64,000 nt of DNA from Minisyncoccota bacterium (GTDB lineage Bacteria; Patescibacteriota; Minisyncoccia; Phycocordibacterales; JABAAK01). The stretch lies in NCBI GenBank assembly GCA_965222235.1, contig OZ244939.1, positions 248,585 through 312,584 of the forward strand, written 5' to 3'. Position numbers and translations under genes: made by a program. The notes under the pieces were generated by a model. It did not search any database and was not told the origin of the DNA. It was given only the letters and a program-made list of their open reading frames with translations. Shown one piece after another: positions 20,546 through 42,827 of the stretch (position 1 is its first letter; each line of letters starts with the position of its first letter).

Positions 20546-20593
20546 ACAGGCAGTGTAGCAAACATTCCGTCAATACAGAAATCACTCAGACCC

Positions 20594-21737: not shown

Positions 21738-21877
21738 AGATAGATCGTTGTAGTGTTCGCGGAATGAAAAATTTTTTTGAATCATCACCATACCAACTAT
21801 ATCTACCTCATCTTCACTGCTCGGTACGGTATACACCGGAGCACGACCGTGCGAACACAACGGTATTAAACTATGGG

Positions 21878-21948
21878 TGACCCCACGGGGAATCGAACCC
21901 CGGTTTTCGCCGTGAAAGGGCGATGTCCTGCCGCTAGACGATGGGGCC
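21878..21948 (-). tRNA. tRNA-Glu (anticodon TTC)
   Basis: Reverse complement GGCCCCATCGTCTAGCGGCAGGACATCGCCCTTTCACGGCGAAAACCGGGGTTCGATTCCCCGTGGGGTCA. Very similar to E. coli tRNA-Glu. Confidence 0.85.
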
Positions 21949-21975
21949 CGGATAACTAATACTATACACAGTGAA

Positions 21976-22938
21976 TTACATCTCCACAATATCACCGGCG
22001 CGGGAAATTGTAAATGCAGCACTCTGCACGAAACCGTCATCCTGCGCAATATCCACCTCAAGCACCGAACCGTCACCCACGAAATGCATGTCCACCACCT
22101 CCCTGCCCGGAAGCGGAATAACCGCAACACCTTTCGCTTTCGGCAGGTGGGAATCGTATACCCGCAATGATGCCAGGTACAGACTTTCTGTCACTGATGA
22201 GATGAGCGGAACGAGGATGAGATTGTCTTTCCTGACTGCGTGATTGGTCTGAACCGTCACGCTGCCGATTTCCGCACCGCTCTGATATAGCCCAAGTATA
22301 ATATCACCCGGCATGTCGTAGGAAACATCCGCCCCCTGCCGTATGCTGGGAAATACCCTGCTGTCTTCATGATGAAGATCCAGTGTGGAGAAGAAAATGG
22401 CATTCCGTATCTGCTGATCAGGCTCAACGATGCACTGACGCTGCTGCTCATCCCACTCACCGAACCGCAGAGTTACGCAGGATGTCTGATCTGCCCCCTT
22501 TAGTGCGTATGAAATCAGCCATGCCGCGCCCATAATGAGGATGAGAAAGGCAATTCCCAGAACGATAAACCGTTGCTGCATATGCTGTGTTTTGTAAAGC
22601 ACACCCCCGCCGAATATGAGCAGAATGGCAAGCGGAATACCCGAGCCAAGTATGATGCCGTAGGCCCCCAACAGTCCTCCTATCAAAACACCGTACGCGA
22701 CGAACGGAAAGGCGATGCAGGAGAGAATGATAAATATATGCTGGTGCCGACGGGTCTCTATGCGGTTCAGAACACCAATGTATGCAGCACCGGCAGCGAG
22801 CATCCACAGAACGGACAGAAGCGGGTGCAGGAGCGCCGCCCAGCTGAGGACAGACATGCCGGGAAGAAACATGAAAAGAATGATAATTGCAGGAATAACG
22901 GCGAACCTGCGACGCACCGAATATTTATTTTTTTCCAT
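21976..22938 (-). CDS. Hypothetical polytopic membrane protein (320 aa)
   Basis: Multiple TM helices in the N-terminal half and a soluble C-terminal domain. No family recognised. Confidence 0.5.
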   Translation of the reverse strand: MEKNKYSVRRRFAVIPAIIILFMFLPGMSVLSWAALLHPLLSVLWMLAAGAAYIGVLNRIETRRHQHIFIILSCIAFPFVAYGVLIGGLLGAYGIILGSGIPLAILLIFGGGVLYKTQHMQQRFIVLGIAFLILIMGAAWLISYALKGADQTSCVTLRFGEWDEQQRQCIVEPDQQIRNAIFFSTLDLHHEDSRVFPSIRQGADVSYDMPGDIILGLYQSGAEIGSVTVQTNHAVRKDNLILVPLISSVTESLYLASLRVYDSHLPKAKGVAVIPLPGREVVDMHFVGDGSVLEVDIAQDDGFVQSAAFTISRAGDIVEM

Positions 22939-23002
22939 ATACCGGTAGTATATAGCATGTGCTTATTAAAAAAAAGATGTGTGGATAAAGTCACTGCCTT
23001 AA

Positions 23003-23185
23003 GTGCACCGCAAGCGGGAGAATATCACCTCTCTATGTAAACAATATACTGATATATCGCTATTTCTACCGAAAAACGCCTACGCTGCCGACAATGCCGT
23101 GATGATCGCTCTAACCGCCTATATCCATCGCAATCGCACAATAGACCCCACCGCCCTTCCCAACCTCTCATTCCCTGAGGCATAG
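23003..23185 (+). pseudogene. Possible gene relic resembling the C-terminus of TsaD/Kae1 (…NAYAADNAVMIA…)
   Basis: Short ORF in an AT-rich intergenic stretch. The motif resembles the CTDNAAMIA C-terminal region of TsaD. Weak. Confidence 0.2.
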
Positions 23186-23247
23186 TAGTAACACAGGATA
23201 CCACACGCTATCCATTTTAGTTATATGTTTTATCAACGCAACAATAT

Positions 23248-23287
23248 AAAAGAAAAAAGAGGCAAAATTGTTTTTAATTTTGCCTCT
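23248..23287 (-). terminator. Rho-independent terminator downstream of the 23322..23945 gene (12-bp perfect stem AGAGGCAAAATT/AATTTTGCCTCT)
   Basis: Perfect inverted repeat followed by TTTTTTCTTTT on the minus strand. Confidence 0.6.
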
Positions 23288-23321
23288 CTGTTGAACTTTA
23301 TGGAATCCACATCAAAAGACT

Positions 23322-23945
23322 TTATTTCTTCCCCTGGGTGACTGGTATATACTCACGCAGATTCAAAGAGCGACACACGCCGGCAATGGGTGCGATGTCT
23401 TCTTCCTCCCCGCCGCCATAGCGACTTTCCCACTCCAACATTACTCGTGCCGGTTGCGGTCCAGCTTCTTCACTCCAGCCGCGGGGAGCGCGCCATGGAC
23501 TGAAAATCAATTCACAACGCGCAGAATTGTCATATTTGTTATTGTTATAACAATCCTTGAAGAAGTGAAGGCTGCCGCGATATCCCTTGCGCAGGAAACC
23601 GGCGGCGATCTGTTTTGCGAGATCAAGAGTAATGATGCGGGATTCGTAACCGGCTTCGTTAAAATTGATGAAACCGGGCAGTTTCTGTTCCACCATGATT
23701 GCGAAGAGGTTGGGGATTCTGCGCTTCCCATTACTTTGATCGTAGCTGCCGACGATTGTGGGACGGATAGTATGGAAACGCTCCAACGCAAAACCCGTGT
23801 TCTCTTCAACTTCTCCGGAAGAGATAAGAGTGTTGAGAGCCCGGAGTCCGCCGTCCAACCATGCCCAGTCTGACGGCACCGCTTCAACCAGCTTTGCCAT
23901 AACCTCTTGATTGTCAGGAATTTCAAAAAACAGATTGCTTTTCAT
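23322..23945 (-). CDS. Hypothetical protein (207 aa), first gene of the lower-GC island
   Basis: ORF with AT-richer composition than the flanking core genes. No family recognised. Confidence 0.45.
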   Translation of the reverse strand: MKSNLFFEIPDNQEVMAKLVEAVPSDWAWLDGGLRALNTLISSGEVEENTGFALERFHTIRPTIVGSYDQSNGKRRIPNLFAIMVEQKLPGFINFNEAGYESRIITLDLAKQIAAGFLRKGYRGSLHFFKDCYNNNKYDNSARCELIFSPWRAPRGWSEEAGPQPARVMLEWESRYGGGEEEDIAPIAGVCRSLNLREYIPVTQGKK

Positions 23946-24203
23946 GCGAAAGTCTCCTTGTGTTGGTTTGCTTGACTTCTACATACAGGTTATCACAGGT
24001 TGCTAATTTTGTCTTGATCGCAAAATCTATATGACTTTGTCATTGAGTGATGACGAATGTGTACCACTTGTGCCCTCATGTGCTGATGAGTGCATAGCGT
24101 TGGAGTTGAGGTGTTGATAAGGTTCATATGCACCTAGTTTTATCACACATATTTTTATTTTAAGTTGGGTGTGTATAACTAAAAATCCATATCGGAATCG
24201 GAT

Positions 24204-24878
24204 CTACGGAATAATGCTCTCAACTTTGTGCACATATTCCATACACTTATGCCCTCCGTATTGAGTGCAAAACGGAATTAATGCGCTGTTATCTGTTCCG
24301 TCATACGGTATAAAATTATGTGGCATTGGAAAAAACTTTTTATCAAAAATGAAGACATTGGAAACTTCAATTGGCTTCAAGTAAGATATGTGCCCTGTTT
24401 TGATAATACGATACCTGTTTTCTTCTCCAGAGAGACGTATAACAACGATCTCTTCATGTATCCCGGAACCAAGAGTTATCCATGATTTTATGACATCACG
24501 AGGATCATCGGAGTGTGGCCTGGAGGATGTTACATACCCCAACAGGTCAATAAACAAAATACCATCCTCTCGGTATACATCGACGTCCAAATAGGAGGGG
24601 GGATTAGTAAAGTCATGTGTATATTCAGCGTTAAACACCACGATATTTCCTTGATATATAGGTCTGGTAGTGGTGCTATACGCCCCCAGCAGAGCTCTCG
24701 GCACATGCAATAGTTCCGGCGGTTGGGTGGGCTTATCGGCGGGTTTATTTTCAGGCAGTAATGTAATGAATACCGCCAATGCAACAAAGGGGGGAAATAA
24801 GAATCCAACCCGCACAACCCAGAAGCAGTTTTTTAGTAAAACGCATATACATGAAGTGCGCCATGGCACACGCCTCAA
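24204..24878 (-). CDS. Hypothetical secreted/membrane-anchored protein
   Basis: N-terminal hydrophobic segment followed by a Pro/Lys-rich linker. No family recognised. Confidence 0.4.
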   Translation of the reverse strand: MRRVPWRTSCICVLLKNCFWVVRVGFLFPPFVALAVFITLLPENKPADKPTQPPELLHVPRALLGAYSTTTRPIYQGNIVVFNAEYTHDFTNPPSYLDVDVYREDGILFIDLLGYVTSSRPHSDDPRDVIKSWITLGSGIHEEIVVIRLSGEENRYRIIKTGHISYLKPIEVSNVFIFDKKFFPMPHNFIPYDGTDNSALIPFCTQYGGHKCMEYVHKVESIIP

Positions 24879-25012
24879 GACTCGTCCCCGCCACTGTTAT
24901 TTCCAAACACCGTCAATGGTATCAAGCGACCGAATTCGACAGCGGAGGCAGGTACACATAAACAACTTTCAACCGTATGATATAGCAAATGTGTACCATC
25001 TTTACACTCCAG

Positions 25013-25096
25013 TGCCCAGGAGAGGACTTGAACCTCCACGGGATTACTCCCATACGCTCCTGAAGCGTACGCGTCTACCAATTCCGCCACCTGGGC
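25013..25096 (-). tRNA. tRNA-Leu (anticodon CAG), type II long variable arm
   Basis: Reverse complement GCCCAGGTGGCGGAATTGGTAGACGCGTACGCTTCAGGAGCGTATGGGAGTAATCCCGTGGAGGTTCAAGTCCTCTCCTGGGCA. Confidence 0.85.
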
Positions 25097-25230
25097 AATA
25101 CACCTCCAGTATGACACAAACATGGGTGCGGTGCATACATTTCCTGTCGGCGCACGGTAGAAACAGCATACAAAAACAGGACCGCCTATACGGTAAAAAC
25201 GGAGGAATATATGGTACAGTATGGTTACAC

Positions 25231-26139
25231 ATGGCGGTATACCAACTGAATCATGCGCAACATGTATCCGTATGGCTGTCGCTGTACGGACAGATAGAGC
25301 GGTTACGGATATTTCTTCATTTATGGAGAGTGGAATTAAAACTGCGGTCAGCGAATGTTGCACACCTTCCCGGACACCTGCAACGGAAACGGGCATTAAA
25401 TATCAGACGCCTGCGCACATACAGAAAAGAGGGATTGTTTCCTAAAAATCTTGATTTCCGCGGTGCCTTTATTCCCTACTTCAAAGATGCAACCGGCACA
25501 CCGTGCGCAGTCGCCTATCTCATGGAACAGTCCGGACAGCGGGATATAGTTGCGGATGTCGCAGTAAAAAACAACCATGTATATGTAAATGACATCAAGG
25601 ACGGACCGGTGCTTATATGGATTAAACAGTCCGGTCTGACACAACAGGAGGCGGCTCGCATACAGCCGTCCTATAGCGGTTGGGTGGGTGGGTTTGAATC
25701 GTCATATCAAACTCCTCATCTGGTTGATCTTTTCTACCCTGCGGCGGTTAACATAACGGTCATTTCAGGGCTGACGATTGCTCTGGCATTTCTGTTGTCC
25801 CGTTCATATCTTGCTTCATTGTGCGCCGGTATCGGCAAAAAAAGATTTTATACCGTCATGATTACGACGCTCGTTATGATTAATGTCGTATCTCTTCTCA
25901 CACATTTTGTCATCTATGATGGCTACGGCACTCGCAATCCTGATATTTCTTGGGCAATACTACTGGTTATCGCCTTCCCTCTTTTTATAATAACTGTCAT
26001 TGTCGGACTGATAAAACTGTTTCTGTATTTTTCGAATAAAAAGCGCTTCATATCTTCACTCATCATCTACCCGTTAACCGGAATCGTGCTCGCAATACTG
26101 CTGATATCCCTGCCTATAATGCTGCTGCTTCTCTGGTAA
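25231..26139 (+). CDS. Hypothetical membrane protein (soluble N-domain plus C-terminal TM helices)
   Basis: The track ORF 24670..26139 crosses tRNA-Leu, so the upstream part is spurious. Start set at the first ATG after the tRNA (25231); the true start is uncertain. Confidence 0.4.
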   Translation: MAVYQLNHAQHVSVWLSLYGQIERLRIFLHLWRVELKLRSANVAHLPGHLQRKRALNIRRLRTYRKEGLFPKNLDFRGAFIPYFKDATGTPCAVAYLMEQSGQRDIVADVAVKNNHVYVNDIKDGPVLIWIKQSGLTQQEAARIQPSYSGWVGGFESSYQTPHLVDLFYPAAVNITVISGLTIALAFLLSRSYLASLCAGIGKKRFYTVMITTLVMINVVSLLTHFVIYDGYGTRNPDISWAILLVIAFPLFIITVIVGLIKLFLYFSNKKRFISSLIIYPLTGIVLAILLISLPIMLLLLW

Positions 26140-26265
26140 CAGTGCTATCGGTACACCGAATCAGCGCATACCGACTGCTATCCCCACGTCATCTGTGCTT
26201 TGATTGGAAAAAATATTAGAACACTAAAGCGGTGCAATGATGAAGCCTGATATACTGTACTGGGT

Positions 26266-27990
26266 ATGAAATTTACTCGCAATCTTAAAGACATGGGAAG
26301 AAATGATACTGCAATCGCGGGCGGAAAAGGATTCTCTCTCGGTAGAATGATTCAAGCCGGCATACCGGTGCCGGATGGTTTCGTGATTCTTTCAACCGTC
26401 TTTGAGCATATTTCAGAAACATCAGGATTAAAATCTGAAATTAAATCAATACTTTATTCTGTAAACAGTAATGATAGTGACACAATCAAATATGCTTCGG
26501 AAAAAATTAGAAAACTTGTATTCAAATCAGAAATTCCCGAAAACATTTCTCATGAAATAATGAGCAATTTTGACCTTCTTCATTCCCAATATGTTGCTGT
26601 ACGATCATCAACCCCCACAGAAGATTCAGCGGATGCGACCTGGGCCGGCATACTTGAGAGCCATCTTGAGACAACAAGAGAAGATTTGTTGGAAAATATA
26701 AAGAAATGCTGGGCATCATTATTCACACATCATGCTATTCAATATGGTTTTGAAAAAGGGTTGGATGAGAAAAATATATCTATTGCGATTGTTATACAAA
26801 AAATGGTGAAAAGTGAAAAGTCCGGAGTTGCTTTTTCTGTTCATCCGGTGACACAAAACAGGGAGCATATGATAATTGAAGCCGGTTCGGGTCTTGGCGA
26901 GGCTGTAGTATCCGGCAAGACTATACCGGATTCCTACATTGTCAGGAGAAAGTCTCTGACAATTGTCAGTAAAAGCATTCATGGGAAGCGGAGTATTCTC
27001 TCTGAAAATGAAACATTGAAACTCTCGGAGATGGTTCTCACTGTTGAAAATCTTTTCGGTTTTCCTGTTGATGTTGAATGGGCATATGAAAAAAGAAAGT
27101 TCTTTATTCTACAGAGCCGCCCCATCACAACACTAACGGAAATAGAGAACCGGATGGTTTTAGTCGGCAAACGAAGAACAGACAAAATGCATGCTGAATT
27201 ACGTATCAAGGGGTGGACAGAGGGATTAAAAAAAGAAATCGGCACCGGTTATAGAAAGATAGTTATAAACTCGGGCGGTGAACATTTTGTAGATTCTGAA
27301 AGTAGGGATGAAATAAATGAATTACTTTCTCAAAAAAGTTTTCAGGATTTTAAGTTTTATTCAGATAAAATGCGTGTATTTAGAGGTGAGAATTTTTCTG
27401 ATTTATTCACATACTTTCTTATAGCCAGACACACTGCTGACGGAATCTATAAAACATGTTCCTCCGAACAACAAAAAGCTATTGAAGAGTGGCGCAACGA
27501 TGAAAATCTCTTTCAGCCACTGGATGAATATATAAAAACAAATCCTGTTAATAAAAGTAAGGAACATTGGAAGTGGGAATTTTATAACGGAAAAATGGTT
27601 CTTACTGAACAAAATGAAAAAAACGTTGATCAAGGCGACAAAGGTGGTTTACTGTCTAAAAAAACACATAAAGAAATAAAAGGTGAGCCGGTGTACGGGG
27701 GTGTGGTTCACGGAACGGTAAAAATTGTTGAAAACTTGGATGACCTTGCAAAAATTACTGAAGGAGATATAGCAGTCGCCCAAATGATGAGCCCTGACTG
27801 TCTTCCCATTATTAAAAAATCCCGGGCAATTATCACGGATGAAGGCGGAATATTAAGTCACACCGCAATTATGGCAAGGGAAATGGAAAAGCCCTGTATT
27901 GTTGGGACCGGAACAGCAACTACAATATTGAAAGATGGGGATCAGATTAAAATTGATGCGGCATCCGGCATGATTCACATCTTGAGCTAA
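26266..27990 (+). CDS. PEP-utilizing phosphotransferase: PPDK-N-type ATP-grasp, unique ~190-aa middle region, C-terminal swivelling phospho-His domain (rifampicin-phosphotransferase-like architecture)
   Basis: N-terminus ...AGGKGFSLGRM...VAVRSSTPTEDSADATWAGILES...FFILQSRPITT. C-terminus GGILSHTAIMAREMEKPCIVG with the catalytic His motif. Confidence 0.7.
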   Translation: MKFTRNLKDMGRNDTAIAGGKGFSLGRMIQAGIPVPDGFVILSTVFEHISETSGLKSEIKSILYSVNSNDSDTIKYASEKIRKLVFKSEIPENISHEIMSNFDLLHSQYVAVRSSTPTEDSADATWAGILESHLETTREDLLENIKKCWASLFTHHAIQYGFEKGLDEKNISIAIVIQKMVKSEKSGVAFSVHPVTQNREHMIIEAGSGLGEAVVSGKTIPDSYIVRRKSLTIVSKSIHGKRSILSENETLKLSEMVLTVENLFGFPVDVEWAYEKRKFFILQSRPITTLTEIENRMVLVGKRRTDKMHAELRIKGWTEGLKKEIGTGYRKIVINSGGEHFVDSESRDEINELLSQKSFQDFKFYSDKMRVFRGENFSDLFTYFLIARHTADGIYKTCSSEQQKAIEEWRNDENLFQPLDEYIKTNPVNKSKEHWKWEFYNGKMVLTEQNEKNVDQGDKGGLLSKKTHKEIKGEPVYGGVVHGTVKIVENLDDLAKITEGDIAVAQMMSPDCLPIIKKSRAIITDEGGILSHTAIMAREMEKPCIVGTGTATTILKDGDQIKIDAASGMIHILS

Positions 27991-28188
27991 CCTCTTCGTC
28001 GCCGCTGCTAAAAATGTATGTCTTCTCTGGTGCCCAGGAAAGGATAGCGTTGGAACTGAAAAAAGTTTTTAGACCAAATATCGCCCGCTCCGAGCGCACA
28101 GTAAACCCACGAATCAACATCGTACGCTTCAAACACCAACCAAAATTACCCGGCCAAACCACCACAAACAACCACAACAAACAAAAAA

Positions 28189-29928
28189 ATGATACAATAC
28201 CAATCAATGGGTATGCTTCGTTTATGTATTTTGGCTGTTTGTCTTGCGGCAGGGCTACATTTTGGGTATGAGGCATGGCAAACATATACGCAACATGGAG
28301 TGCCGCTTAAAACGGTTGCAACCTATGCTGTACCAAGTATTACTCATAACGGTATTGAATACACCATTACTGACGCAGGGTTGCAGGGCATCAGTGACAA
28401 ACACCGGAACAAACTGCTGCAACTTGCTTACTTTGCAACAGTTGCGCGAATTGATCCGCTCCTTGCCTTACCGGGTGTAGACCTAGAAGTATTTCGTGCG
28501 GTTATTGATGAGATAGAAGCGTCACAGGAACGGGTCACGTCCGTGTATAGTCCCGAAGACCGGAAGATGATTCGAATGTCACTGTATCCGATTTCATTCC
28601 TCAAATCGCTGCATGATCTGGAGCAACTACGTCGACAGGTTGTGGAAACCCCATCGTTTAGTGATACAGAGACATATCAACGACAGTTCGTTGAAACCTA
28701 CGAACTATATATAGAAAATATAGAAACTTTGCAACATGCGATTGAAGTGCTTGTTCCTGATGCAATCAAGCGAAGCACAATCCGCTTTCATACGGGAAAC
28801 TCAAGTATGGGATTTATTGCAAACACACTGGCCAAGTATCAGGACGGTATCACTCAGGTATATGAAACACAACTTGATCGGTTTCGCTGTTATAAGGGGG
28901 TAGCTAAATACTGTTTTGAAATTACCCGACCGCAGTTACCATCAATCGTACAGTCAACCGCATCGGACGAGTATAAGAATACAGTCATGCAACATCAAAC
29001 TTTTATTGAGGCGTTTCGGCAAGATCCGTATCGCGGATACAGTCACCCGTATGCCAATGTAGAGCTGTCTACGAGCAGGTGTGGTGACCCAGATAAGCCG
29101 GGTTACTACTACCTGTGGTGGCGTGAAGACGATTCAGGATTAGCTATTTTTCGCCCTGATTTGCTACACGAGCTATTTTTCTATGATTTTTGGCACGGAA
29201 AACAGGCTGATTGGCAGTATGCGCAAGTATACCGAACGCTTCGTGGTCCGCAGTATACCTACCAGCCAATTGCAAGCCATTATGTCTGTCCGGATCTTGG
29301 GTTAGATATGGCCACCATATTGTCAATGCTCTATGTAGATGAGAATAAACTACACATAGTACCCGTTGGGTCTGAACCACAGCCCGAGATTGACCCACTC
29401 ATTGATGCAGCTAATTTCGCATACGATGAATTGACTGACTCACAGCAACTTATCCAAGTAGCGATTGAGGTATATATTGATGCATTGCATGCGCTGCTAA
29501 CCTCTACATCAGAGTCAGAATTGTATGAATACATCGGTACTACCGCTACTCAAACGGCGCATGACCTGGTCACCGTATACTATGCCCGAACTGCCTATGT
29601 TCCGGATGTATTGATGAGTGTAGTCAGTGATAACGAAGCGGTTGCTAACTATGCGTTGCATGGCACATCAACCGGATTAGACGAGTTGCTATTACTACGA
29701 ACCGTACCAATGGTGTTGTATGGCGGTTTCACCCCGACAATTCAACCACAACCTCACACCTTTGTCCGTGAATTTATCTCTGAACCGCCAGATATTCTCG
29801 TTACCTGGCCAGATTTAGAAATTGTAGATACAGCAACATTTGTCCGCGAGCTACAGAAGGCTGAGCGGGTGAAGATTGATATGTCTGCCTCTGTTGGCAC
29901 TGTGTATCCAACCAACTCGTCTAACTAA
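28189..29928 (+). CDS. Hypothetical large protein (579 aa) with N-terminal signal anchor
   Basis: N-terminal hydrophobic helix, rest unrecognised. Part of the island. Confidence 0.45.
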   Translation: MIQYQSMGMLRLCILAVCLAAGLHFGYEAWQTYTQHGVPLKTVATYAVPSITHNGIEYTITDAGLQGISDKHRNKLLQLAYFATVARIDPLLALPGVDLEVFRAVIDEIEASQERVTSVYSPEDRKMIRMSLYPISFLKSLHDLEQLRRQVVETPSFSDTETYQRQFVETYELYIENIETLQHAIEVLVPDAIKRSTIRFHTGNSSMGFIANTLAKYQDGITQVYETQLDRFRCYKGVAKYCFEITRPQLPSIVQSTASDEYKNTVMQHQTFIEAFRQDPYRGYSHPYANVELSTSRCGDPDKPGYYYLWWREDDSGLAIFRPDLLHELFFYDFWHGKQADWQYAQVYRTLRGPQYTYQPIASHYVCPDLGLDMATILSMLYVDENKLHIVPVGSEPQPEIDPLIDAANFAYDELTDSQQLIQVAIEVYIDALHALLTSTSESELYEYIGTTATQTAHDLVTVYYARTAYVPDVLMSVVSDNEAVANYALHGTSTGLDELLLLRTVPMVLYGGFTPTIQPQPHTFVREFISEPPDILVTWPDLEIVDTATFVRELQKAERVKIDMSASVGTVYPTNSSN

Positions 29929-31172
29929 AACTCCAGTTTGATGCTTTTGTTCTTATCCTTTACTTCGTAGGTCGTGTCAAAGTAGAGTCTCGGCGGATTA
30001 AATAAACCAGCTTCGATGGCCTGCTTTAGAGTTACTCTGTGTGAAATCTGGACAGCATCAAGCGCGCTAAGTATACGTTCTCGTAATGATGATGTATCCT
30101 TAATACCGTCACAAAGCACCAGTGTGATATCTAGTAGTGCAACAATACGGTCACCAGTACGTATCTCACGCACGATGACATGTATTACCGGCTTGAGTTC
30201 GGTACTGAATACTGCCAGAGCAGCTTGTAGGTATTCAATTCTAAGTTCCGTCCCTCGTACGCGAACAAAATCTACTCCACTACGACCGGTGATTTTGAAC
30301 CTCGGTTTATCAAGACCACAAACACACGGCTCCTTGAGCAGAATCCCACTATCGCCAGTTTGATATCTAATCAATGGGAGGGGGTATAGGGGGGGGTTGA
30401 GGATGGTTATCGCAATCTCATTTGTAGAGTCAATATCGACCACAAAATCCTCATCGTTGATGTGCATGATGGTATAATCTTCACCACAGGCTGGCGTGTG
30501 AAAACCAAACGCTCCGGAGGATTCAATACTCCCAAAGTGGTTAAAAATTTGAGCCATTGGATACTGCTGTTTGAGTAGTTGTAGGGTGGTTGGAGTGAGG
30601 GCTTCACCACCGAGATCCAGTACCTTAAATTGCTCAAGCAGCTTCATGTTTTTGAGGTGTTGAGGCAACATTGTGGCAATTGATGGCGAAGCAGCTAATG
30701 TATCAAATGTTTCAGTCTGTAACAGTTCTTCGCAATACGATAATTGATGTGGGTCAATTGACATTACTTCAATCCCCGATGAGCGTATGGATGATGCCCA
30801 GAGAGGGGTTGTTGTGTAATTCCAGATAAGGAACATTCTTTTGGTGCCCCACTGTTGTAGTGTGCGATAGAATGAAATTGCATATTCATGCAGCCATACA
30901 AAAAAAGGTTCTCCCGAGGTTGATCCTGAGGATGAATTTAGCAGCGAAAGCTTTTGTGGTGGTACGAATATGTGGATACCTTGGGTGCGTGCAGCGACAA
31001 AAACAGCTTTGGTGACTGGTGGGAGTTGTTGTAGATCGGTTATGTCGGCAATGGTTGGACAGACCGTGATACCGGCTAATCGCCAATGTGTTTGGTATAA
31101 ATCGCTGTAGTCATTATTCCATGCAGCATTGATGGCGGCTTGGAGCTTGAACATTGTTTCATTCTGATACAT
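29925..31172 (-). CDS. PaaK/CapK-family adenylate-forming enzyme (phenylacetate-CoA ligase / F390 synthetase-like)
   Basis: P-loop SSGSTSGEPF, downstream YQTGD motif, length ~415 aa. The start is either ATG 31172 or 31154. Confidence 0.65.
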   Translation of the reverse strand: MYQNETMFKLQAAINAAWNNDYSDLYQTHWRLAGITVCPTIADITDLQQLPPVTKAVFVAARTQGIHIFVPPQKLSLLNSSSGSTSGEPFFVWLHEYAISFYRTLQQWGTKRMFLIWNYTTTPLWASSIRSSGIEVMSIDPHQLSYCEELLQTETFDTLAASPSIATMLPQHLKNMKLLEQFKVLDLGGEALTPTTLQLLKQQYPMAQIFNHFGSIESSGAFGFHTPACGEDYTIMHINDEDFVVDIDSTNEIAITILNPPLYPLPLIRYQTGDSGILLKEPCVCGLDKPRFKITGRSGVDFVRVRGTELRIEYLQAALAVFSTELKPVIHVIVREIRTGDRIVALLDITLVLCDGIKDTSSLRERILSALDAVQISHRVTLKQAIEAGLFNPPRLYFDTTYEVKDKNKSIKLEF

Positions 31173-31641
31173 AGTGTGAAAGCGGGTTAGATAGGCGTAT
31201 GACCTTTGACTCCCTGAGGTCAAACGACCTTCCGAGCACGAACTCATCCTCATCACTATCTGACACTAGAATAAGTTGTAGAGGTGTAGTTACTTTGTGC
31301 CGGCTCTCAAGTGCTTTTAACAAGTAAGGAAGTACACTGATTTCAGACACTATGCATGTAGCACCGCTGTAGGTATACGCCTGAACTGTCCAGGGCAAAT
31401 CATACACTGATCCGCACACCAGCGGAATCCCAGTTAACATAGTGACTGAAAGAATTACAGGTTCTAGGTGTCTCTCGGGCGGCAGAAAACTAATAATTGC
31501 CTCCGGTCGGTTGGTATCTAAAAACAGTTTTAATTCTGGCCAAACCAAATCGTTCACCGAGACAATTTTAAGTGACCCGTCTGATTGTCTCACTGGTATC
31601 AGTTGCGGGACATCAGATTTTACCAACGAGTTACTGCCCAT
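31159..31641 (-). CDS. Hypothetical protein (160 aa) immediately upstream of the adenylating enzyme
   Basis: Its start codon lies inside the conserved 3' UTR shared by the two small peptide genes. Confidence 0.45.
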   Translation of the reverse strand: MGSNSLVKSDVPQLIPVRQSDGSLKIVSVNDLVWPELKLFLDTNRPEAIISFLPPERHLEPVILSVTMLTGIPLVCGSVYDLPWTVQAYTYSGATCIVSEISVLPYLLKALESRHKVTTPLQLILVSDSDEDEFVLGRSFDLRESKVIRLSNPLSHYVSE

Positions 31642-31685
31642 AAAATCAAACTACAAACATTTTTAGATTATCCATTACTTATATA

Positions 31686-31940
31686 CTAAAGGAATCCGCC
31701 GCATCCGGCAAAGAGCACTTCATCTGAATCGTCAGCACTCTCCAAGTACTCAAGGTAATCCATTGTACCGAGTACGTCACACTGTAGACTTGATTGAGCG
31801 ACGGTATCATCGGTGTTAGATGAAGAATATCCCAACAATGGAGCTGTTTGCTCAGCACTTATCCACTGCAAACCAAAAAACCCTAATACCACTACAACAA
31901 AAAATACAATGCACTCCACGATTGTCTTTGTTTTAGTCAT
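31686..31940 (-). CDS. Small secreted/membrane-anchored peptide P1 (84 aa) with conserved acidic Cys-containing C-terminal core
   Basis: N-terminal TM/signal, then a Ser/Thr-rich stretch, then VAQSSLQCDVLGTMDYLEYLESADDSDEVLFAGCGGFL. Paralog of 34354..34614. Confidence 0.55.
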   Translation of the reverse strand: MTKTKTIVECIVFFVVVVLGFFGLQWISAEQTAPLLGYSSSNTDDTVAQSSLQCDVLGTMDYLEYLESADDSDEVLFAGCGGFL

Positions 31941-32289
31941 ATATATAGTATATCTATACAGTTCTGATTCTGGGAACGAAACTGGTCCAGACTGTGGATA
32001 ACCCGATTTTTGCTTGATTTCATAATCGCTTTCGAATCGTGTGGTCCGGTTCCACAGTTAAGTCATGAGATCTAAAATTATACTATCCTTCTTTGATATT
32101 ATAGACAAAAGATGCTTGATTAAGATTGATGGTTTCGTGTTTTGAATAATTCTTGAGCCAAAACATCCTGGAGGTAAGGCAACTATAAGTACGCGACTAC
32201 TGCTTGTCTGTTACTGAACATATCTTGCACCTTTCACTTACCATTTCTTTTTCAATTTCTTTCCGCCGCCATTTCGCGCTCCGTGCGAT

Positions 32290-32480
32290 TCAAAAGGCAA
32301 AAGAAATGGGTTGTGTGATCGGCACGGCAGAGCGAAGCGCATGGAGGAGCGGCACGGAACGAAGTGGAGTGTCACTCTGAAGCACTCCGACTGTTCCCGC
32401 GTGAAAGAGCGGTGCCGAACGGGGCGAGTTGCCTGCTCGGAGTAAGTGGAGTGACCACGAGCCTCGTTTGAAATGTTCTC
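32290..32480. repeat. GC-rich degenerate direct repeats (units approx. CGGCACGG..GCGAAG..GGAG; GAAGTGGAGTG twice) in the gap between membrane gene H and peptide P1
   Basis: Seen directly. It generates the spurious repetitive ORF 32290..32490 (SAPLFHA/SVPLLHA). Confidence 0.5.
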
Positions 32481-32506
32481 CGAATTTCAATGCACTGTCC
32501 GGCGAA

Positions 32507-34153
32507 TCACAAGATTCCTTGCCGGCGGATTGTATCGTAGGGAACAGTCTCTAAATTTTCCCGGTCAATTAAAATCCACGGATTGTGTCTTAATGGGTGA
32601 TACTCTACAGCACAAACATTGACCTCGTCCAACACCCGCCGATAAGGTTCCAAGTTAATGGCAATGTCCATGGTAAGCAATGCTGACTTGAGATTATTGT
32701 GCAAACACCGCTGCTTCAATACATACCATTGATAGTAAGGTCTGCAATACCCCATGCGTTCTTCTTCCCACCATTGAACGGATTCAGTGTTATCTTGATC
32801 ACGAATAGAGGTGGTAATGTAACACCAAGGCAACGCCTGAAACATATGCAGACCAAAACGGACTCCTTCACGGGTGAGTCGTGAATCGCCCGGTATGACA
32901 AGAGAGACACTCTGCCCCAGGATTAATAAGGCAGTTAACCCGATGATGATAATTTGATGCAGGCGTTTTGCGGGCCAATGTATAGGACATTCGTGTCCCA
33001 GGAACACAATAAGTAGTATCACCACAGCTACCGCCGGAAAGAAATATTGAATTAATACGACCGAATAAATATGAAATATGAACAATGCGCCGATCGCAAT
33101 ATATCGTAACGGTTTTTTACTCAACAATAACCAAATGATGCCCCCATGTATGGCTATGACTGTTAAGGCAAGTGGTGTGTGCAATTGGTCACCGACGATC
33201 GGGAGTCCCAGGTCAAGTGATTTAAATATTTCCCCCCCCCCCAACCACGAATCGTTCATTTTAGAGCTTAGTGATAAGATATAGGTCATCATAAGCACCC
33301 ATCCCACGGTCATAATTTTATTTGGCAAAAACAGAAGAATGAAATTGATTATGCAAACATAAAACATCACATGGCCATAGTAAAAATCATTATGGGTTAA
33401 CAATCCCACCAGGACTATGTGCCACACTGCAGGTACCAACAGCAGCATGTGTCCCAAAACCAGACGGCGCGAAAGCACGGCAACCAGGGCTCCGGAGAGA
33501 AATAGCATCAACACAATACTCCAGATGTGATATCCGTACTCTGAAAAAATATAATATTCATAACAATTTTGAAACCAGATGGGACAGATGTACTCCCCAA
33601 CCTGCAAAGGAGTGACGATTGATAGGGCTGGGTTTTTCAGGGCAAAAACTAAAAATGCAATTGAAGCGATTAATAGGTACGGTGCCAATTGACTGTTTTT
33701 AAACTCATGTACACTAAACAGTCGTTCGTATCCGGTAAAATATTTACGGAATGGCGACACATTCAACATGACACGTTGACCGATAGTTTTGACAAGTAGC
33801 CACAAACCGACACCCAGTACAAACCAATGAAGGTATGTATGTTCAAGGCTGGTATGTATAGTGGGATCTATGTAGCCCAGAAAAGCGGTGATAATTGACG
33901 GCAGCAAGAGTAACCATGCTGTTGTTGTATAACCACGATACATCTGTATGCCGCTGAGGAGAAACAATAATAACAACCCCGCGTACAAATACATAAAGGA
34001 ATAGCCCACCGGCTGTATAGTCAAATCGGACCCTAATATTGCTTTGCTGACATAGGGGGACTCAAGGATAACGAATGCTGTGATCAATGTCGTCCAATAT
34101 ATGACTGTGCCGGTCTGTTTGGTCAGGATGTGCTTTATGATATACATCGGCAT
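32507..34153 (-). CDS. Hypothetical polytopic membrane protein (548 aa, >10 TM)
   Basis: Highly hydrophobic ORF directly downstream of peptide P2. No family recognised. Confidence 0.5.
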   Translation of the reverse strand: MPMYIIKHILTKQTGTVIYWTTLITAFVILESPYVSKAILGSDLTIQPVGYSFMYLYAGLLLLFLLSGIQMYRGYTTTAWLLLLPSIITAFLGYIDPTIHTSLEHTYLHWFVLGVGLWLLVKTIGQRVMLNVSPFRKYFTGYERLFSVHEFKNSQLAPYLLIASIAFLVFALKNPALSIVTPLQVGEYICPIWFQNCYEYYIFSEYGYHIWSIVLMLFLSGALVAVLSRRLVLGHMLLLVPAVWHIVLVGLLTHNDFYYGHVMFYVCIINFILLFLPNKIMTVGWVLMMTYILSLSSKMNDSWLGGGEIFKSLDLGLPIVGDQLHTPLALTVIAIHGGIIWLLLSKKPLRYIAIGALFIFHIYSVVLIQYFFPAVAVVILLIVFLGHECPIHWPAKRLHQIIIIGLTALLILGQSVSLVIPGDSRLTREGVRFGLHMFQALPWCYITTSIRDQDNTESVQWWEEERMGYCRPYYQWYVLKQRCLHNNLKSALLTMDIAINLEPYRRVLDEVNVCAVEYHPLRHNPWILIDRENLETVPYDTIRRQGIL

Positions 34154-34353
34154 ATCTGTAAAAAGTATTCATGATGGATGACATGTGTACTCCGTGTGTT
34201 TCCGAGGCAGGGTTCGTAATGAGTAATATACAATAGATTCGGTGGATACTGGATAGAATCCGAACATTTCGACAAAAAGTATCGTGACCACACACCAATA
34301 AAATCAAACTACAAACATTTTTAGATTATCCATTGTTTATATACTATCATATA

Positions 34354-34614
34354 TTAAAGGAACCTCCCGCATTCGGCAAAGAGCGCTTCATCTGAATCGT
34401 CAGCACTCCCCAAGTACTCAAGGTAGTCCGTTGTGCCGAGTACGTCACACTGTAGACTTGATTGAGCGACGGTATGTGTATCAGTAGAATCGGTGGATGA
34501 GTTAGAGAATTTGCCAGATCCTGAAAAGGCGGATGTCAACACCAGGAAATATATTGAGCTGATGAAAAATCTTGTAAAAATGAAACGCAAATGATATATA
34601 ACCATGACTACCAA
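34354..34614 (-). CDS. Small secreted/membrane-anchored peptide P2 (paralog of P1)
   Basis: C-terminus VAQSSLQCDVLGTTDYLEYLGSADDSDEALFAECGRFL. The track start is a TTG; the likely ATG start is at 34605. The 3' half of the gene and 45 bp downstream are near-identical to the P1 locus. Confidence 0.55.
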   Translation of the reverse strand: MVVMVIYHLRFIFTRFFISSIYFLVLTSAFSGSGKFSNSSTDSTDTHTVAQSSLQCDVLGTTDYLEYLGSADDSDEALFAECGRFL

Positions 34615-34663
34615 AAAAGAGTGCTACCATTTCTGATAGCACTCCTCCGCTGATGCCGGCCCG

Positions 34664-35962
34664 TCAGAGCCCGATAACATTGCGCAAACGCTTCTCCTGC
34701 CGGAGACGAAGCTCGGCGTAGAGCAACGGATTCCGCATTGCGAGAATCTGCAGCGCCGCAAGGATGGCATTCTTGGGACTGAGAACGGTGGTAACCGGTG
34801 TCTCGCTCGGCGTACGAAGAGACGACCACACATCCTCGGGAAGTTCCCGCCACGTCGCGGGAACAGTGATTACTGGCACGGTACACTGAGCGGACAGGGT
34901 CGGTCCCGCACCGTTGCTCCTCCCGCAGTATACGATGACCACGGTATCAGGAACCTCTTGAACCAGTCGTCCGATCACCTCATAAGCCGTCACCGGATCC
35001 TTATGAAGCGAACAGGTTACCGTCTGCACACTGCACACCCCGTTCGCATCGTACGCCGCGAGCGCATCCTGAAACGGCTTCAGCTCATCGGATGCTGATG
35101 CCCGCCAAAGAATGATTCGCTGATGCGGCACGGTGAAACGCTCGGTCAGATTGGCTACCAGTCGGTAACTCGTGGTGACGGTATTGAGGTCAACGCCGTC
35201 GCGGTAGAGCTGCTTGTCAAGGTGCCGCTCGTGGTCAACCACCCGCCACGAATCGTTGTCGATCACGTCCGCGAGCACCAACTTGTCCTCCATGTTGGTG
35301 CCGAACTCCACCTTGAAGTCAACGAGCCGTCGCCCGACAATCCGCCACGCCTGCTCCAAAATGAGAAAGGCCTTGATGGCGATTTCGCCCATCCGTTCAA
35401 TATCTCCCGGTGAATTCCGCAGAGGAAAAGCATTAAGAGAACGGAACGGTGCCTGTTGATGGATCGGCCGATTGGGAAGGTATAAATCCGCATGATCCGA
35501 CTCAAAACGAATGAGTGGATCGTCCGTGGGAAGATCAGACCCCTCCCACGTCTTGCCGGAAGTCTTCAGGAAAAACTCCAACAGAAGACGCGGAAACACG
35601 TGACCCTTGTGGAGCCCCGGATGACGCTTGAGGAACGAGCCGTGTGCTTCACGCCGGACGACCACCTCGTAGTGAATCATGTCGCACCGCTCCGAGAGAA
35701 AGCTCGTCTCGTTCAGCTCCTGAATGAACGCGACAGGGAGACGGTCCGACACCTTGAGCAAACGGAACACATTCGATGTGGTGCGGTTCGAAAGTGCCGC
35801 CTTGCCGGTGATAACATCGCGCTTGGCGCCGTCGCCGGCAGTCACGTCGTCCTTGGACTCGATAATCACCTGTCCGGACTTCTCCGTCGCGAAGACTTTC
35901 TTGGTCTTCCCTTCGGTCAACAACTCTCCGGCAACTACACCATTGTTCATTGCACTGGTCAT
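34664..35962 (-). CDS. Bifunctional SAICAR synthetase (PurC) + AIR carboxylase (PurE) fusion, PAICS-like
   Basis: N-terminus GKTKKVFATEKSGQVIIESKDDVTAGDGAKRDVITGKAA (PurC). C-terminus ...VVIVYCGRSNGAGPTLSAQCTVPVITVP... (PurE fold). Strong SD AAGGAGGAAACG before the ATG. Confidence 0.75.
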   Translation of the reverse strand: MTSAMNNGVVAGELLTEGKTKKVFATEKSGQVIIESKDDVTAGDGAKRDVITGKAALSNRTTSNVFRLLKVSDRLPVAFIQELNETSFLSERCDMIHYEVVVRREAHGSFLKRHPGLHKGHVFPRLLLEFFLKTSGKTWEGSDLPTDDPLIRFESDHADLYLPNRPIHQQAPFRSLNAFPLRNSPGDIERMGEIAIKAFLILEQAWRIVGRRLVDFKVEFGTNMEDKLVLADVIDNDSWRVVDHERHLDKQLYRDGVDLNTVTTSYRLVANLTERFTVPHQRIILWRASASDELKPFQDALAAYDANGVCSVQTVTCSLHKDPVTAYEVIGRLVQEVPDTVVIVYCGRSNGAGPTLSAQCTVPVITVPATWRELPEDVWSSLRTPSETPVTTVLSPKNAILAALQILAMRNPLLYAELRLRQEKRLRNVIGL

Positions 35963-36600
35963 CGTTTCCTCCTTCTAAGGAAAAGAACTGGTAATCAATC
36001 CGCCCAATCTCCCACTGAAACGGGAGCAGTTGGATCTGCAATAAATAATACCAGAATTCCGTAAAAACACAACGAATTGATTATCAATAAAACTATAATG
36101 AAAGACAACTGATGGGAAAGCTCACTATTGTGCTTCAGCAACATTCAGATAATATTCATCATCTGTCGTTTGAAACAGACAGGTGCCTTTGCTTTGACTT
36201 GCTTTCCGTTGTCTTTCTCTTGAAGTACACCTTGGCTTTTGTGTTGCCGCGGGGCACCTTTCTCCTTTTTCAAACTGTTTTTTTGAGTTTTAATGCTATT
36301 CTCTATTGGAAACTTGGAAAGAAGAATGTATGGTATATTGCGAAACATAAAAAAACTCATGGAGGAACATTCCGTGAGATGAGACATCAAACGCGAAACA
36401 GAAAGGAGTCCGAGGGATACCATACCGTTTTCGGATTCTCCCATATGACATTAACGGAACGGAAGCCTGTGGCAGTAGTTGGTTCCGGCTCAACGGTGAA
36501 ACTGGGATCAAGGAAAACAGCACGAACGAACGGGGATACCGTGATACCGATACCCTCCGGTGCGGTGAGATACGCTTCGCCGGAGATTTATACTGTCCAG

Positions 36601-36684
36601 TGCCCAGGAGAGGACTTGAACCTCCACAGGATTACTCCTATACGCCCCTCAAGCGTACGCGTCTACCAATTCCGCCACCTGGGC
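36601..36684 (-). tRNA. tRNA-Leu (anticodon GAG)
   Basis: Near-identical to tRNA-Leu(CAG) at 25013..25096, differing by C34G, A38G and a compensatory pair in the variable arm. Confidence 0.85.
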
Positions 36685-38331: not shown

Positions 38332-38357
38332 CCGTGCTATTTCCTGGACACTACCCC

Positions 38358-39709: not shown

Positions 39710-39734
39710 ATATACAGTATATGGCAAATTTTGG

Positions 39735-42777: not shown

Positions 42778-42827
42778 ATATGCATAATATACCGCAAAAA
42801 TACCGCACACCCAAATAACTACCCCCT

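Follow-up and report, generated by a model that had tools for sequence, protein, structure and literature searches.

The closest described counterparts of the locus analyzed here are the genomic islands associated with tRNA genes, with their atypical G+C content (GC) and codon usage, sporadically distributed cargo, location at tRNAs, nearby insertion sequences (IS) and mosaic build-up. All of these recur in a low-GC stretch at around 23–35 kb of the 64,000-nucleotide (nt) segment considered here, henceforth the window (positions 248,585 to 312,584 of contig OZ244939.1, Minisyncoccota bacterium assembly GCA_965222235.1), which a preliminary description had delimited at 22940–34650 and regarded as a horizontally acquired accessory module. 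In contrast to such islands, the stretch has no integrase or recombination-directionality gene and no clear flanking direct repeats, its atypical DNA lies on the 5' side of a tRNA-Leu(CAG) gene, and its host is a bacterium of the candidate phyla radiation (CPR) without close sequenced relatives. Tests for a genomic island thus found the atypical composition, the sporadic distribution and the tRNA linkage, and did not find an integrase. We consider this low-GC stretch to be a mosaic of laterally acquired DNA, with a probability of about 0.75: an island that is ordinary in kind and unusual in its cargo. For part of that cargo the nearest described systems are the SdpABC and YitPOM loci of Bacillus subtilis and the linaridin clusters (with CrdG), in which, as here, a small signal-bearing precursor is encoded beside a membrane protein of the VKGC/HTTM superfamily. 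The processing of SdpC needs both SdpA and SdpB, and YitO is a paralogue (PMC6818787); linaridin clusters have HTTM proteins as a conserved component (PMC9927463). These systems differ from the window, which has no SdpA, SdpI/R, linaridin enzymes or sequence match to SdpB/HTTM, whose peptide is acidic and not hydrophobic, and where the partners are a PaaK-like ligase and two family-less proteins.

The compositional anomaly is visible in GC, tetranucleotides and codon usage. The core of the window has a GC of ~0.55 and most flanks of the island stand at ~0.52–0.59, whereas 1-kb windows at 23–35 kb fall to 0.38–0.48. In 2-kb windows, the core (defined as the windows left after masking of obvious low-GC patches) averages 0.551 ± 0.016 (n = 34) against 0.39–0.45 in the island, i.e., z = −6 to −10. 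The tetranucleotide L1 distance of the island rises to z = +14, and, once tetranucleotide usage is normalised for GC, its correlation with the core is 0.23–0.60 in place of 0.87 ± 0.03, with the minimum at 28–33 kb. At the level of codons, the GC at third positions (GC3) is 0.33–0.48 in eight island genes versus 0.635 ± 0.041 in 31 core genes, without any overlap (Mann–Whitney p = 1.6e-8). The correlation of relative synonymous codon usage (RSCU) with the core, which is 0.85 in core genes (minimum 0.70), lies between −0.19 and 0.18 for the genes of a phosphotransferase, a 579-amino-acid (aa) protein, the ligase group and a 548-aa protein, and at 0.52 for a membrane-protein open reading frame (ORF) at 25330–26139. 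Such shifts in GC3 and RSCU are not explained by amino-acid composition. The preliminary description was therefore right in that the stretch is AT-richer than the flanking core. The island is not unique in this respect, with further low-GC patches at 36–40 kb and 44–46.5 kb of the window. An ion-channel gene at 16113–16898 has a GC of 0.469, yet a normal GC3 of 0.65 and a position conserved in relatives; hence, low GC without low GC3 may mislead in this genome. The strong hairpin terminators that the same description saw in the intergenic stretches did not hold up: 14 terminator-like hairpins occur in the region versus 13.3 ± 3.6 in shuffled sequences, i.e., no enrichment, and a single one is convincing (23256–23289, 14 pairs).

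The second line of evidence comes from the phyletic pattern of a four-gene cassette in the middle of the island (block 2, 28.2–32.0 kb):

28189–29928, + strand: 579-aa protein without a family match, anchored in the membrane by one N-terminal helix, its large extracytoplasmic part rich in aromatic residues and in Cys, with conserved Cys among them
29925–31172, − strand: PaaK/CapK-like adenylate-forming ligase, 415 aa as called, the ORF reaching 31256
31159–31641, − strand: 160-aa family-less cytoplasmic protein with a 14-nt overlap with the ligase start, as in the related loci L002–L004
31686–31940, − strand: peptide gene 1, 84 aa, with a basic N-terminus, a membrane/signal helix, a site between ISA and EQ, and an acidic region

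The gene for the 579-aa protein is convergent with that of the ligase, and their stop codons overlap. A word-indexed search of 5.8 billion proteins, a method by which remote relatives are missed, recovered four ligase homologues of more than 45% identity, all on ENA contigs (68–69% and 48% identical). Three of these lie on long contigs from one ENA sample with a GC of 0.43–0.45 (L002–L004), and there all four cassette genes occur in the order of the window, complete with the 14-nt overlap and the convergent arrangement. Their site, between an aminotransferase/278-aa gene and ClpB amid IF-2, RbfA and L25, is unrelated to the context in the window. Identity to these loci is 58–70% for the 579-aa protein, 67–68% for the ligase, 70–73% for the 160-aa protein and 56–58% for peptide 1. 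Similarity extends into the 58 nt upstream of peptide gene 1 (31946–32003), which are 76% identical to L004. They are the sole part conserved with L004 in the non-coding spacer of 566 nt (31941–32506) between peptide gene 1 and the gene of the 548-aa protein, a spacer that also holds an imperfect inverted repeat (32241–32258 / 32292–32309) and has no Rfam match.

The cassette genes have a GC3 of 0.41–0.43 in the window, where the core stands at 0.64, and of 0.25–0.34 in L002 and L004, where their neighbours (IF-2, ClpB, L25 and type II secretion genes) range over 0.29–0.45. This suggests that the cassette is at home in genomes of 0.43–0.45 GC, and that it is foreign and partly ameliorated in the window. 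The gatB genes of the L002–L004 contigs (442 kb and 589 kb) are not among the best 120 gatB matches, which reach down to 53% identity, and the flanks of L002–L004 correlate with the window core in tetranucleotide usage at 0.22, as against 0.65–0.85 for Kaiserbacteria-like loci; despite this distance in gatB, the cassette is 58–73% identical. Identification of the donor by tetranucleotide signature was also attempted and gave no better fit (island versus L002–L004 flanks 0.35, versus window core 0.36). Composition alone thus names no donor, and the GC3 comparison is the more informative.

These observations bear on the possibility that there was no transfer at all, the stretch being vertically inherited, lineage-specific DNA that drifted towards high AT, through weak expression, membrane or secreted products and relaxed codon selection, and was lost in relatives. 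It would account for the missing mobility genes and for the presence of several other low-GC patches in the window, it fits with the cassette being a little AT-richer than its neighbours in L002–L004 as well, and there is no close relative to show absence. We nonetheless regard it as improbable: the shifts in GC3 and RSCU are large and independent of amino-acid content, the tetranucleotide correlation goes down to 0.23, and the homologues are confined to compositionally distant genomes, at another locus and at an identity above the expectation from gatB. Further, the cassette carries its own upstream region, and the junctions bear scars in the form of a 171-nt duplication and a chimeric ORF, which are taken up below.

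The contents of the stretch point to a mosaic. The right edge is abrupt, at 34.5–34.8 kb by the purCE stop codon, which agrees with the limit originally set. The left edge is diffuse and does not agree with it, as can be seen from the genes that precede the cassette:

21976–22938, − strand: 320-aa polytopic membrane protein without a family match, GC3 0.58, outside the atypical DNA
23322–23945, − strand: 207-aa family-less protein, GC3 0.54, followed by the terminator hairpin 23256–23289
24204–24878, − strand: 224-aa protein, family-less, with a membrane helix near its N-terminus and a GC3 of 0.42, the first clearly AT-shifted gene
25330–26139, + strand: ~270-aa family-less protein with a C-terminal multi-helix membrane region, GC3 0.47
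26266–27990, + strand: 574-aa phosphotransferase, Pfam PF01326 (PPDK_N) 2e-77 and PF00391 6e-24

The two leftmost genes are near host-like in GC3, so the strongly atypical part begins at ~24.0 kb. The start codon of the 25330–26139 gene is uncertain, for a long ORF (24670–26139) crosses the tRNA. Of all island genes, that of the 574-aa phosphotransferase is lowest in GC (0.384) and in GC3 (0.33), and no homologue of it occurs in any of the loci compared, those with other island genes included. Together with the preceding gene it forms block 1 (25.3–28.0 kb), and block 3 (32.5–34.6 kb) follows the cassette; blocks 1, 2 and 3 are unlike each other in GC (0.384, 0.45 and 0.43, respectively), in tetranucleotide correlation and in phyletic pattern. 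The laterally acquired DNA would extend over ~25.1–34.6 kb, and perhaps include the 224-aa gene at 24.2–24.9 kb as well. In light of this, the earlier view of a horizontally acquired module survives as far as acquisition is concerned, on the basis of composition, of homologues located elsewhere in lower-GC CPR genomes and of the absence of the island beside the 96%-identical purCE of another genome (L001); it fails in so far as it supposed one module, since at least three blocks with differing GC, signatures and phyletic patterns are seen. The contents it named, namely a PPDK_N/PEP-utilizers protein at 26266–27990, a PaaK-like ligase, two paralogous peptide genes and family-less ORFs, are all present.

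Block 3 holds two genes:

32507–34153, − strand: 548-aa polytopic membrane protein with a vitamin-K-dependent gamma-glutamyl carboxylase fold, i.e., HTTM-like membrane part plus lumenal beta domain, with conserved Cys
34354–34614, − strand: peptide gene 2, 83–86 aa, chimeric, keeping a signal-like N-terminus

The last 42 codons of peptide gene 2 and the 52 nt downstream of it duplicate gene 1 (31637–31807 = 34295–34475, 88–94% identical). This 171-nt duplication, which marks the junction of blocks 2 and 3, goes precisely as far as the start codon of the 160-aa gene; in the copy this codon is ATT. The 5' end of peptide gene 2, on the other hand, lies in the flank of purCE that resembles the one in L001. 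With a duplicated 3' part and a 5' end in the purCE flank, peptide gene 2 is a recombination chimera. The 548-aa protein is 66% identical to a homologue in L004 and 48–52% identical to those in L168 and L169, on contigs with a GC of 0.43–0.44. The L004 homologue lies 2 kb from the cassette, and an L004-like donor could thus have given blocks 2 and 3 together.

The chimeric gene is likewise of consequence for the view that the island is an artefact of assembly or binning, in which lower-GC CPR DNA from the same sample was joined to the contig. The source is metagenome-assembled, the GC step at 34.6 kb is abrupt, the GC of the island (0.43–0.45) is that of the CPR genomes with homologues, and an independent Logan contig, which matches 21886–25076 at 100% identity, ends inside tRNA-Leu(CAG); it validates the left part, and the junctions of the island lie outside its reach. 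Against this, the GC step does not fall at a repeat, and peptide gene 2 runs as one ORF from the L001-like purCE flank into the island. No other genome has island DNA above 76% nt identity and hence there is no evident donor contig; the island is internally heterogeneous, the source contig measures 641 kb, and records of island proteins exist in NCBI, ENA and Logan. A chimera of this kind is therefore very improbable.

The setting of the mosaic is given by two tRNA-Leu genes and the purine-biosynthesis gene next to them:

21876–21948, − strand: tRNA-Glu(UUC), resident, found by ARAGORN and Rfam
25012–25096, − strand: tRNA-Leu(CAG), likewise found by ARAGORN and Rfam
36600–36684, − strand: tRNA-Leu(GAG), paralogue of tRNA-Leu(CAG)
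34579–36585, − strand: purCE segment, with the purC–purE fusion gene (34664–35962) and 620 nt of upstream non-coding DNA
24056–24109, no strand assigned: degenerate version of tRNA-Leu(CAG) sequence (3' end plus 3' flank), with the copy at 24056–24094 and then ATAGCGTTGGA
28026–28059, no strand assigned: tRNA-Leu 3'-end-like sequence, with a 14/15 match at 28030–28044 and then ATAGCGTTGGA as at 24094

The tRNA-Leu(CAG) and tRNA-Leu(GAG) genes are 87–92% identical, a figure that takes in ~25 nt on the 5' side and ~14 nt on the 3' side, and their anticodons differ at the wobble base alone; they look like recent duplicates. Between them they bracket 25.1–36.6 kb, and recombination between the two could delete the intervening 11.5 kb. 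Rfam at its gathering threshold found nothing but tRNAs in the window. The purCE segment is 92–96% identical in nucleotides to L001 (9005–11372) and has a host-like GC. The L001 genome is otherwise distant, with gatB 68% identical and RNase III/NusB ~63% identical at the amino-acid level. For non-coding DNA to be 92–96% identical between genomes so far apart, the purCE segment must have been exchanged recently. This points to a recent lateral transfer of a purine-biosynthesis gene, next to tRNA-Leu genes, between CPR lineages. The preliminary description had used purCE as a core flank of the island; it is not a stable one. In another relative, the GTDB genome of L005, purCE forms a high-GC patch (0.53) in a genome of 0.41.

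In L001, purCE is followed by a 34-nt sequence (11517–11550) that shares 97% identity with the DNA just 3' of tRNA-Leu(CAG) in the window, and then by tRNA-Leu(UAG) and tRNA-Leu(UAA), with no island. Thus, tRNA-Leu(CAG), which does lie within the stretch first described and had been taken to be carried by the island, is probably, along with the DNA to its left, a resident anchor and not cargo. With paralogous tRNA-Leu genes bracketing the region and a mobile purCE beside them, the locus can be described as a tRNA-Leu/purCE rearrangement hot spot. The two short tRNA-Leu-like sequences may be relics of attachment (att) sites, if their likeness to the tRNA unit is taken at face value. The two score highest of all window segments against the tRNA-Leu unit, that at 24056–24109 being the second-best with a score of 24 versus a background maximum of 21. 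For the motif at 28030–28044, three matches occur in the window versus 0.12 expected, two of them being the tRNAs themselves, and the sequence sits at the border between the phosphotransferase block and the cassette.

The host itself is placed in Patescibacteria/CPR by its purC–purE fusion protein and gatB, whose nearest named matches are from Candidatus Kaiserbacteria. Three family-level relatives (L085, L086 and L087) share the order gatB-GAPDH-RpiB-Rpe-ion channel-transketolase with 11.5–20.5 kb of the window. Upstream of gatB they have Obg (and SecA), neither of which is in the window. The shared synteny stops exactly at the first of two IS30 copies:

20591–21737, + strand: IS30 copy 1, transposase 20648–21730 (NCBIfam NF033563, 219 bits)
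42825–43971, + strand: IS30 copy 2, 15 nt upstream of gatC and in direct orientation to copy 1

Copy 1 has 27-nt terminal inverted repeats (20597–20623 / 21705–21731), and IS30 probably caused the synteny break at gatB. Both copies lie 15–46 nt upstream of gat genes (gatB start 20545, gatC start 42810), and they might drive or disturb the expression of gatB and gatCA. The preliminary description had proposed to look in syntenic genomes for an adjacency of gatB and purCE. They are neighbours in no relative: Obg–gatB is found instead, and the two genes are ~110 kb apart on one 831-kb contig, that of the genome of L001 and L086. The idea that an ancestral gatCAB operon was split by a 20-kb insertion was tried as well and is ruled out by the Obg–gatB arrangement of the relatives.

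The IS30 copies raise the question of whether the region belongs to a discrete mobile element. Two kinds come into consideration: a composite transposon of IS30 (20591–43971), and a decayed integrative element that inserted at a tRNA-Leu 3' end. Two IS30 copies that are 99.9% identical and in direct orientation do bracket 21 kb with the island in it, the synteny break is at copy 1, and the tRNA-Leu genes and the two relics stand at block borders, all in one orientation. The bracketed segment, however, also includes gatA, gatC and the 340-aa and 320-aa genes, with host-like GC3 and a GC of 0.52–0.59, which makes a composite transposon unlikely, and no second copy of the bracketed unit was found. 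On the side of an integrative element, there is no integrase or excisionase among the ORFs tested, the scores of the relics barely exceed background, and the phage, plasmid and viral collections match the tRNA alone. We judge a discrete element of either kind to be a poor candidate and prefer the reading as an acquired mosaic without such an element.

Several observations weigh against lateral acquisition and have to be set beside the above. No integrase, relaxase, phage, plasmid or defence genes were found among the ORFs tested at 21.9–37.4 kb (Pfam, NCBIfam, PADLOC and PHROGs), phage, plasmid and IMG/VR collections gave no match save to the tRNA, and no clean direct repeat flanks the island. 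The two candidate att sequences are statistically weak, their scores being barely above background. The collections hold no close host relative: the best gatB relatives are 68–72% identical, an exact look-up of the purCE of the window gave no record, and every island protein stands as a singleton when clustered at 90%. A scan of GTDB representative genomes with the purCE protein as a single query gave no match; an alignment-based scan gave 80 loci, the nearest 71% identical and without shared synteny. The distance of L002–L004 from the host was inferred indirectly, without a shared marker. Finally, in L002–L004 as well the AT content of the cassette is slightly above that of its flanks, so that part of the skew may be intrinsic.

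Taken as a whole, the explanation that we favour, somewhat better than even in likelihood once an inferred mechanism for the cargo is included, is that of an acquired mosaic at a hot spot. The mosaic would have been built up at the rearrangement hot spot formed by the paralogous tRNA-Leu genes and the mobile purCE segment in a Kaiserbacteria-like CPR genome. The island would be cargo rather than a self-mobile element, with genes drawn from lower-GC relatives, and block 2, along with its own upstream region, would have come from an L004-like lineage of ~0.43–0.45 GC. If so, even a gene of purine biosynthesis, and not accessory cassettes alone, passes between lineages of very small CPR genomes at tRNA-Leu sites, with no mobile-element machinery to be recognised there. 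The cassette of a peptide, a ligase and two family-less proteins has been seen in four genomes only, and it lies here beside a protein with the vitamin-K-carboxylase fold; its possible function merits consideration in its own right.

The ligase aligns with the phenylacetate-CoA ligases 9s3l and 4r1l over residues 9–382, and keeps the P-loop SSSGSTSGEP (A3), YQTGD (YxTGD, A7), GRSG (GRxD, A8) and the two-domain layout. It is like the PaaK/CapK/coenzyme-F390-synthetase-like ligases in length, domain order, P-loop, YxTGD, GRSxD and C-x-CG. The similarity is remote (E 2e-6 to 4e-5 versus PaaK; 23.5 bits to Pfam AMP-binding against a cut-off of 29.9), its NCBIfam matches to the DVU_1553 family, FlxY and PaaK are all below cut-off, and, unlike PaaK-type ligases, it has a dedicated overlapping partner gene, that of the 160-aa protein. 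Since it keeps the motifs of the ANL superfamily and aligns over residues 9–382, it can be regarded as a complete adenylating enzyme with the 160-aa protein as an extra partner. The possibility that the latter is a split-off N-terminus of the ligase was entertained and ruled out by the match of the ligase to PaaK from residue 9. The 160-aa protein itself has no family or PDB match, and its single-sequence AlphaFold model has a predicted local distance difference test (pLDDT) score of 35. The 579-aa protein has no match in Pfam, NCBIfam, PHROG, PADLOC or PDB. For the family-less proteins, Pfam at E up to 10 gave noise alone.

Peptide 1 ends in an invariant ...DYLEYLE.ADD...LFAGCGG[FL][FL] and has two conserved Cys. 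Its orthologues share an ISA/VSA site followed by AQS..C.LG..DYLEYLE.ADD...LFAGCGG and two hydrophobic residues, the conservation lying in this C-terminal motif and not in the membrane part.

The fold of the 548-aa protein was assigned through a model. An AlphaFold model from 61 members of its family, which has 366 representatives, reached a pLDDT of 82 and a predicted TM-score (pTM) of 0.79. When it was compared with the PDB by Foldseek, the best 15 matches were all human GGCX (probability 1.0, E 3e-7 to 6e-5, TM ~0.45), and the next match had E > 1. At the sequence level the connection fades: the window protein matches neither Pfam HTTM (PF05090) nor VKGC_lumenal_dom, 6/61 family members have sub-threshold matches to VKGC_lumenal_dom and 5/61 to MauE, and a sequence profile of the family does not reach GGCX in the PDB. 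An hhalign comparison with a bona fide HTTM protein aligns the K-motif at E 0.047 and a probability of 1%. SdpB belongs to the HTTM superfamily. The SdpB models match neither the window protein nor the 61 family members, and no SdpA- or SdpC-like genes are in the window. Going by the predicted structure, the 548-aa protein is thus a member of the HTTM/VKGC superfamily at the level of the fold, and not at the sequence level of Pfam HTTM or SdpB. A lysine, K298, is nearly invariant in the family in a helix motif Y-x-L-[SA]-x-x-x-K-x-x-x-x-W, which presumably resembles the region of the catalytic K218 of GGCX. What GGCX and the window protein have in common is the overall fold and Glu-rich, Cys-containing small secreted proteins encoded alongside; they differ in sequence, with 12–15% identity.

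The wider family offers a genomic context for this fold. A scan of JGI metagenomes with typical family members gave 80 loci (L088–L167), whose neighbours were clustered; the same scan with the close subfamily of the 548-aa protein gave no relatives. The recurrent neighbours are:

30/80 loci: protein with a phosphoribosyltransferase (PRTase) domain and a pyrroloquinoline-quinone (PQQ) propeller
15/80 loci: TPR proteins
14/80 loci: YcaO
7/80 loci: SagB-like nitroreductase
4/80 loci: DCC1-like thiol-disulfide oxidoreductase
2/80 loci: bona fide HTTM proteins
3/80 loci: PaaK-like ligases, 25–28% identical to the window ligase (E 4e-13)
at least 11/80 loci: signal-anchored peptides in which an A[HY]AD[IVA]P motif precedes an acidic tail rich in D/G/S/C

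Some tails of the last group are almost pure poly-Asp, and the PRTase and the PQQ propeller are fused. The carboxylase-fold family often has two paralogues per locus, with a conserved membrane ORF of 60–84 aa directly downstream. No paper that mentions HTTM together with YcaO was found in the literature.

These contexts allow a tentative proposal, more likely wrong than right, for what the cassette does, namely that it makes a modified, Sec-exported acidic peptide. The 84-aa precursor would be synthesised in the cytoplasm, where the PaaK-like ligase and the 160-aa protein, whose translation is coupled to it, would adenylate a carboxylate with ATP. That carboxylate could be an acyl donor, destined for attachment to the precursor, or it could belong to the precursor's invariant acidic tail DYLEYLE.ADD...FAGCGG[FL][FL]. 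The modified peptide would be exported by Sec and cleaved after ISA/VSA. Outside the cell, the anchored 579-aa protein might act on it or sense it, as processing enzyme, receptor or immunity factor, and the carboxylase-fold protein may modify it further at the outer face of the membrane. The proposal draws on the gene order, overlap and convergence conserved in four genomes, on a signal-anchor peptide with an invariant motif, on the ANL motifs, and on the recurrence of the carboxylase-fold family beside YcaO, SagB-like and DCC1-like proteins, PaaK-like ligases and signal-anchored peptides, as well as on the link already drawn between bacterial HTTM proteins and secreted-peptide maturation (PMC6818787, PMC9927463). 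As in clusters for ribosomally synthesized and post-translationally modified peptides (RiPPs), a short precursor with a conserved core lies beside candidate modifying enzymes in a unit kept in four genomes. Several features speak against it. No class-defining RiPP enzyme (YcaO, LanB/M, radical SAM, ATP-grasp, MNIO) and no RiPP recognition element or PqqD-like domain was found with Pfam and NCBIfam, and the 160-aa and 579-aa proteins are without detectable relatives. Peptide gene 2 has AECGR for the invariant AGCGG, with two glycines lost. Moreover, the closest homologues of the 548-aa protein, those in L004, L168 and L169, usually have as neighbours a spermine-synthase-like membrane protein of 750 aa and an Acyl_transf_3 protein, and not peptides. 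The pairing of the 548-aa protein with peptide gene 2 may accordingly be an accident of recombination. The ~750-aa polytopic partner is always beside the homologue (L004 13123–15369; L168 4331–7778; L169 3829–7248), with a weak spermine-synthase-like domain in L004 and L168, and Acyl_transf_3 is adjacent in L168 and L169. The trio of carboxylase-fold protein, Acyl_transf_3 and ~750-aa protein is absent from the window.

This neighbourhood could also be taken to mean that the cargo is cell-envelope machinery, with the carboxylase-fold protein acting on lipids or glycans, the ligase activating an acyl group, and the small proteins serving as membrane-anchored accessory subunits. The absence of a RiPP hallmark enzyme from the window is in keeping with it, and PaaK/CapK-like ligases also occur in polysaccharide loci. 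Nevertheless, in L002 and L003 the peptide, 160-aa, ligase and 579-aa genes travel without envelope genes, the invariant part of the peptide is its C-terminal motif rather than its membrane part, and the wider carboxylase-fold family sits with YcaO, SagB-like proteins and Cys-rich acidic peptides. An envelope role is hence unlikely, and the modified peptide remains the reading that we prefer for the cassette.

A bolder version, to which we give rather little credence, is that CPR bacteria have a new class of modified peptides, exported by Sec and defined by the cassette together with the vitamin-K-carboxylase-fold enzyme. In one possible variant, the ligase would adenylate the precursor at its free C-terminus, and the invariant Cys, fifth residue from that end, would close a five-residue thiolactone, C-G-G-[FL]-[FL], which would be an ATP-driven, AgrB-independent route to a signal like the autoinducing peptides. 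In another, the carboxylase-fold enzyme would modify the Glu/Asp-rich stretch at the outer membrane face, as a possible bacterial counterpart of gamma-carboxyglutamate (Gla) formation. More broadly, the 366-member carboxylase-fold family would then be an unrecognised family of RiPP-maturation enzymes. Were modified, exported peptides indeed produced, they would open a new approach to the ways in which signalling to hosts and neighbours, or competition with them, is carried out by episymbiotic CPR bacteria, and the bacterial HTTM/VKGC-fold proteins would gain a testable substrate.

The phosphotransferase of block 1 is cargo of a separate kind. It is made up of an N-terminal ATP-grasp domain (PPDK_N), a short middle and a C-terminal swivel phosphohistidine domain, and matches 8a8e and 5fbs in the PDB; no PEP (phosphoenolpyruvate)/pyruvate TIM barrel was found in it with Pfam or NCBIfam. 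It resembles rifampicin phosphotransferase and PigC/RedH in having PPDK_N and the swivel His without the TIM barrel. It differs in size from rifampicin phosphotransferase (574 versus ~860 aa), and its middle (substrate) region of ~170 aa is matchless. The NCBIfam model for that enzyme (RPH) gave 284 bits against a cut-off of 999, and all its NCBIfam scores are far below cut-offs. Its identification as PEP synthase was considered and set aside, the TIM barrel being absent and the score of 362 bits falling short of the PRK06464 cut-off of 598. From its domain content, it is predicted to be a phosphotransferase of the PEP-synthase/rifampicin-phosphotransferase type.

Two of the other low-GC patches in the window likewise adjoin tRNA genes. 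A second insert at 38358–39850, with a GC of 0.33–0.38, abuts tRNA-Met (39855–39929) and is flanked by an 18-nt imperfect direct repeat (38354–38371 / 39839–39856). Its genes specify a PD-(D/E)XK nuclease and a DNA methyltransferase of the N6/N4 type, which together make a type II restriction-modification pair. The third patch, at 44000–46550, comes just after IS30 copy 2 and next to tRNA-Ser(GGA). It carries an antitoxin-like gene with a SocA/Panacea domain (44643–45293), a DUF805 protein and a 54-nt inverted repeat that is 94% complementary (45504–45557 / 46297–46350).

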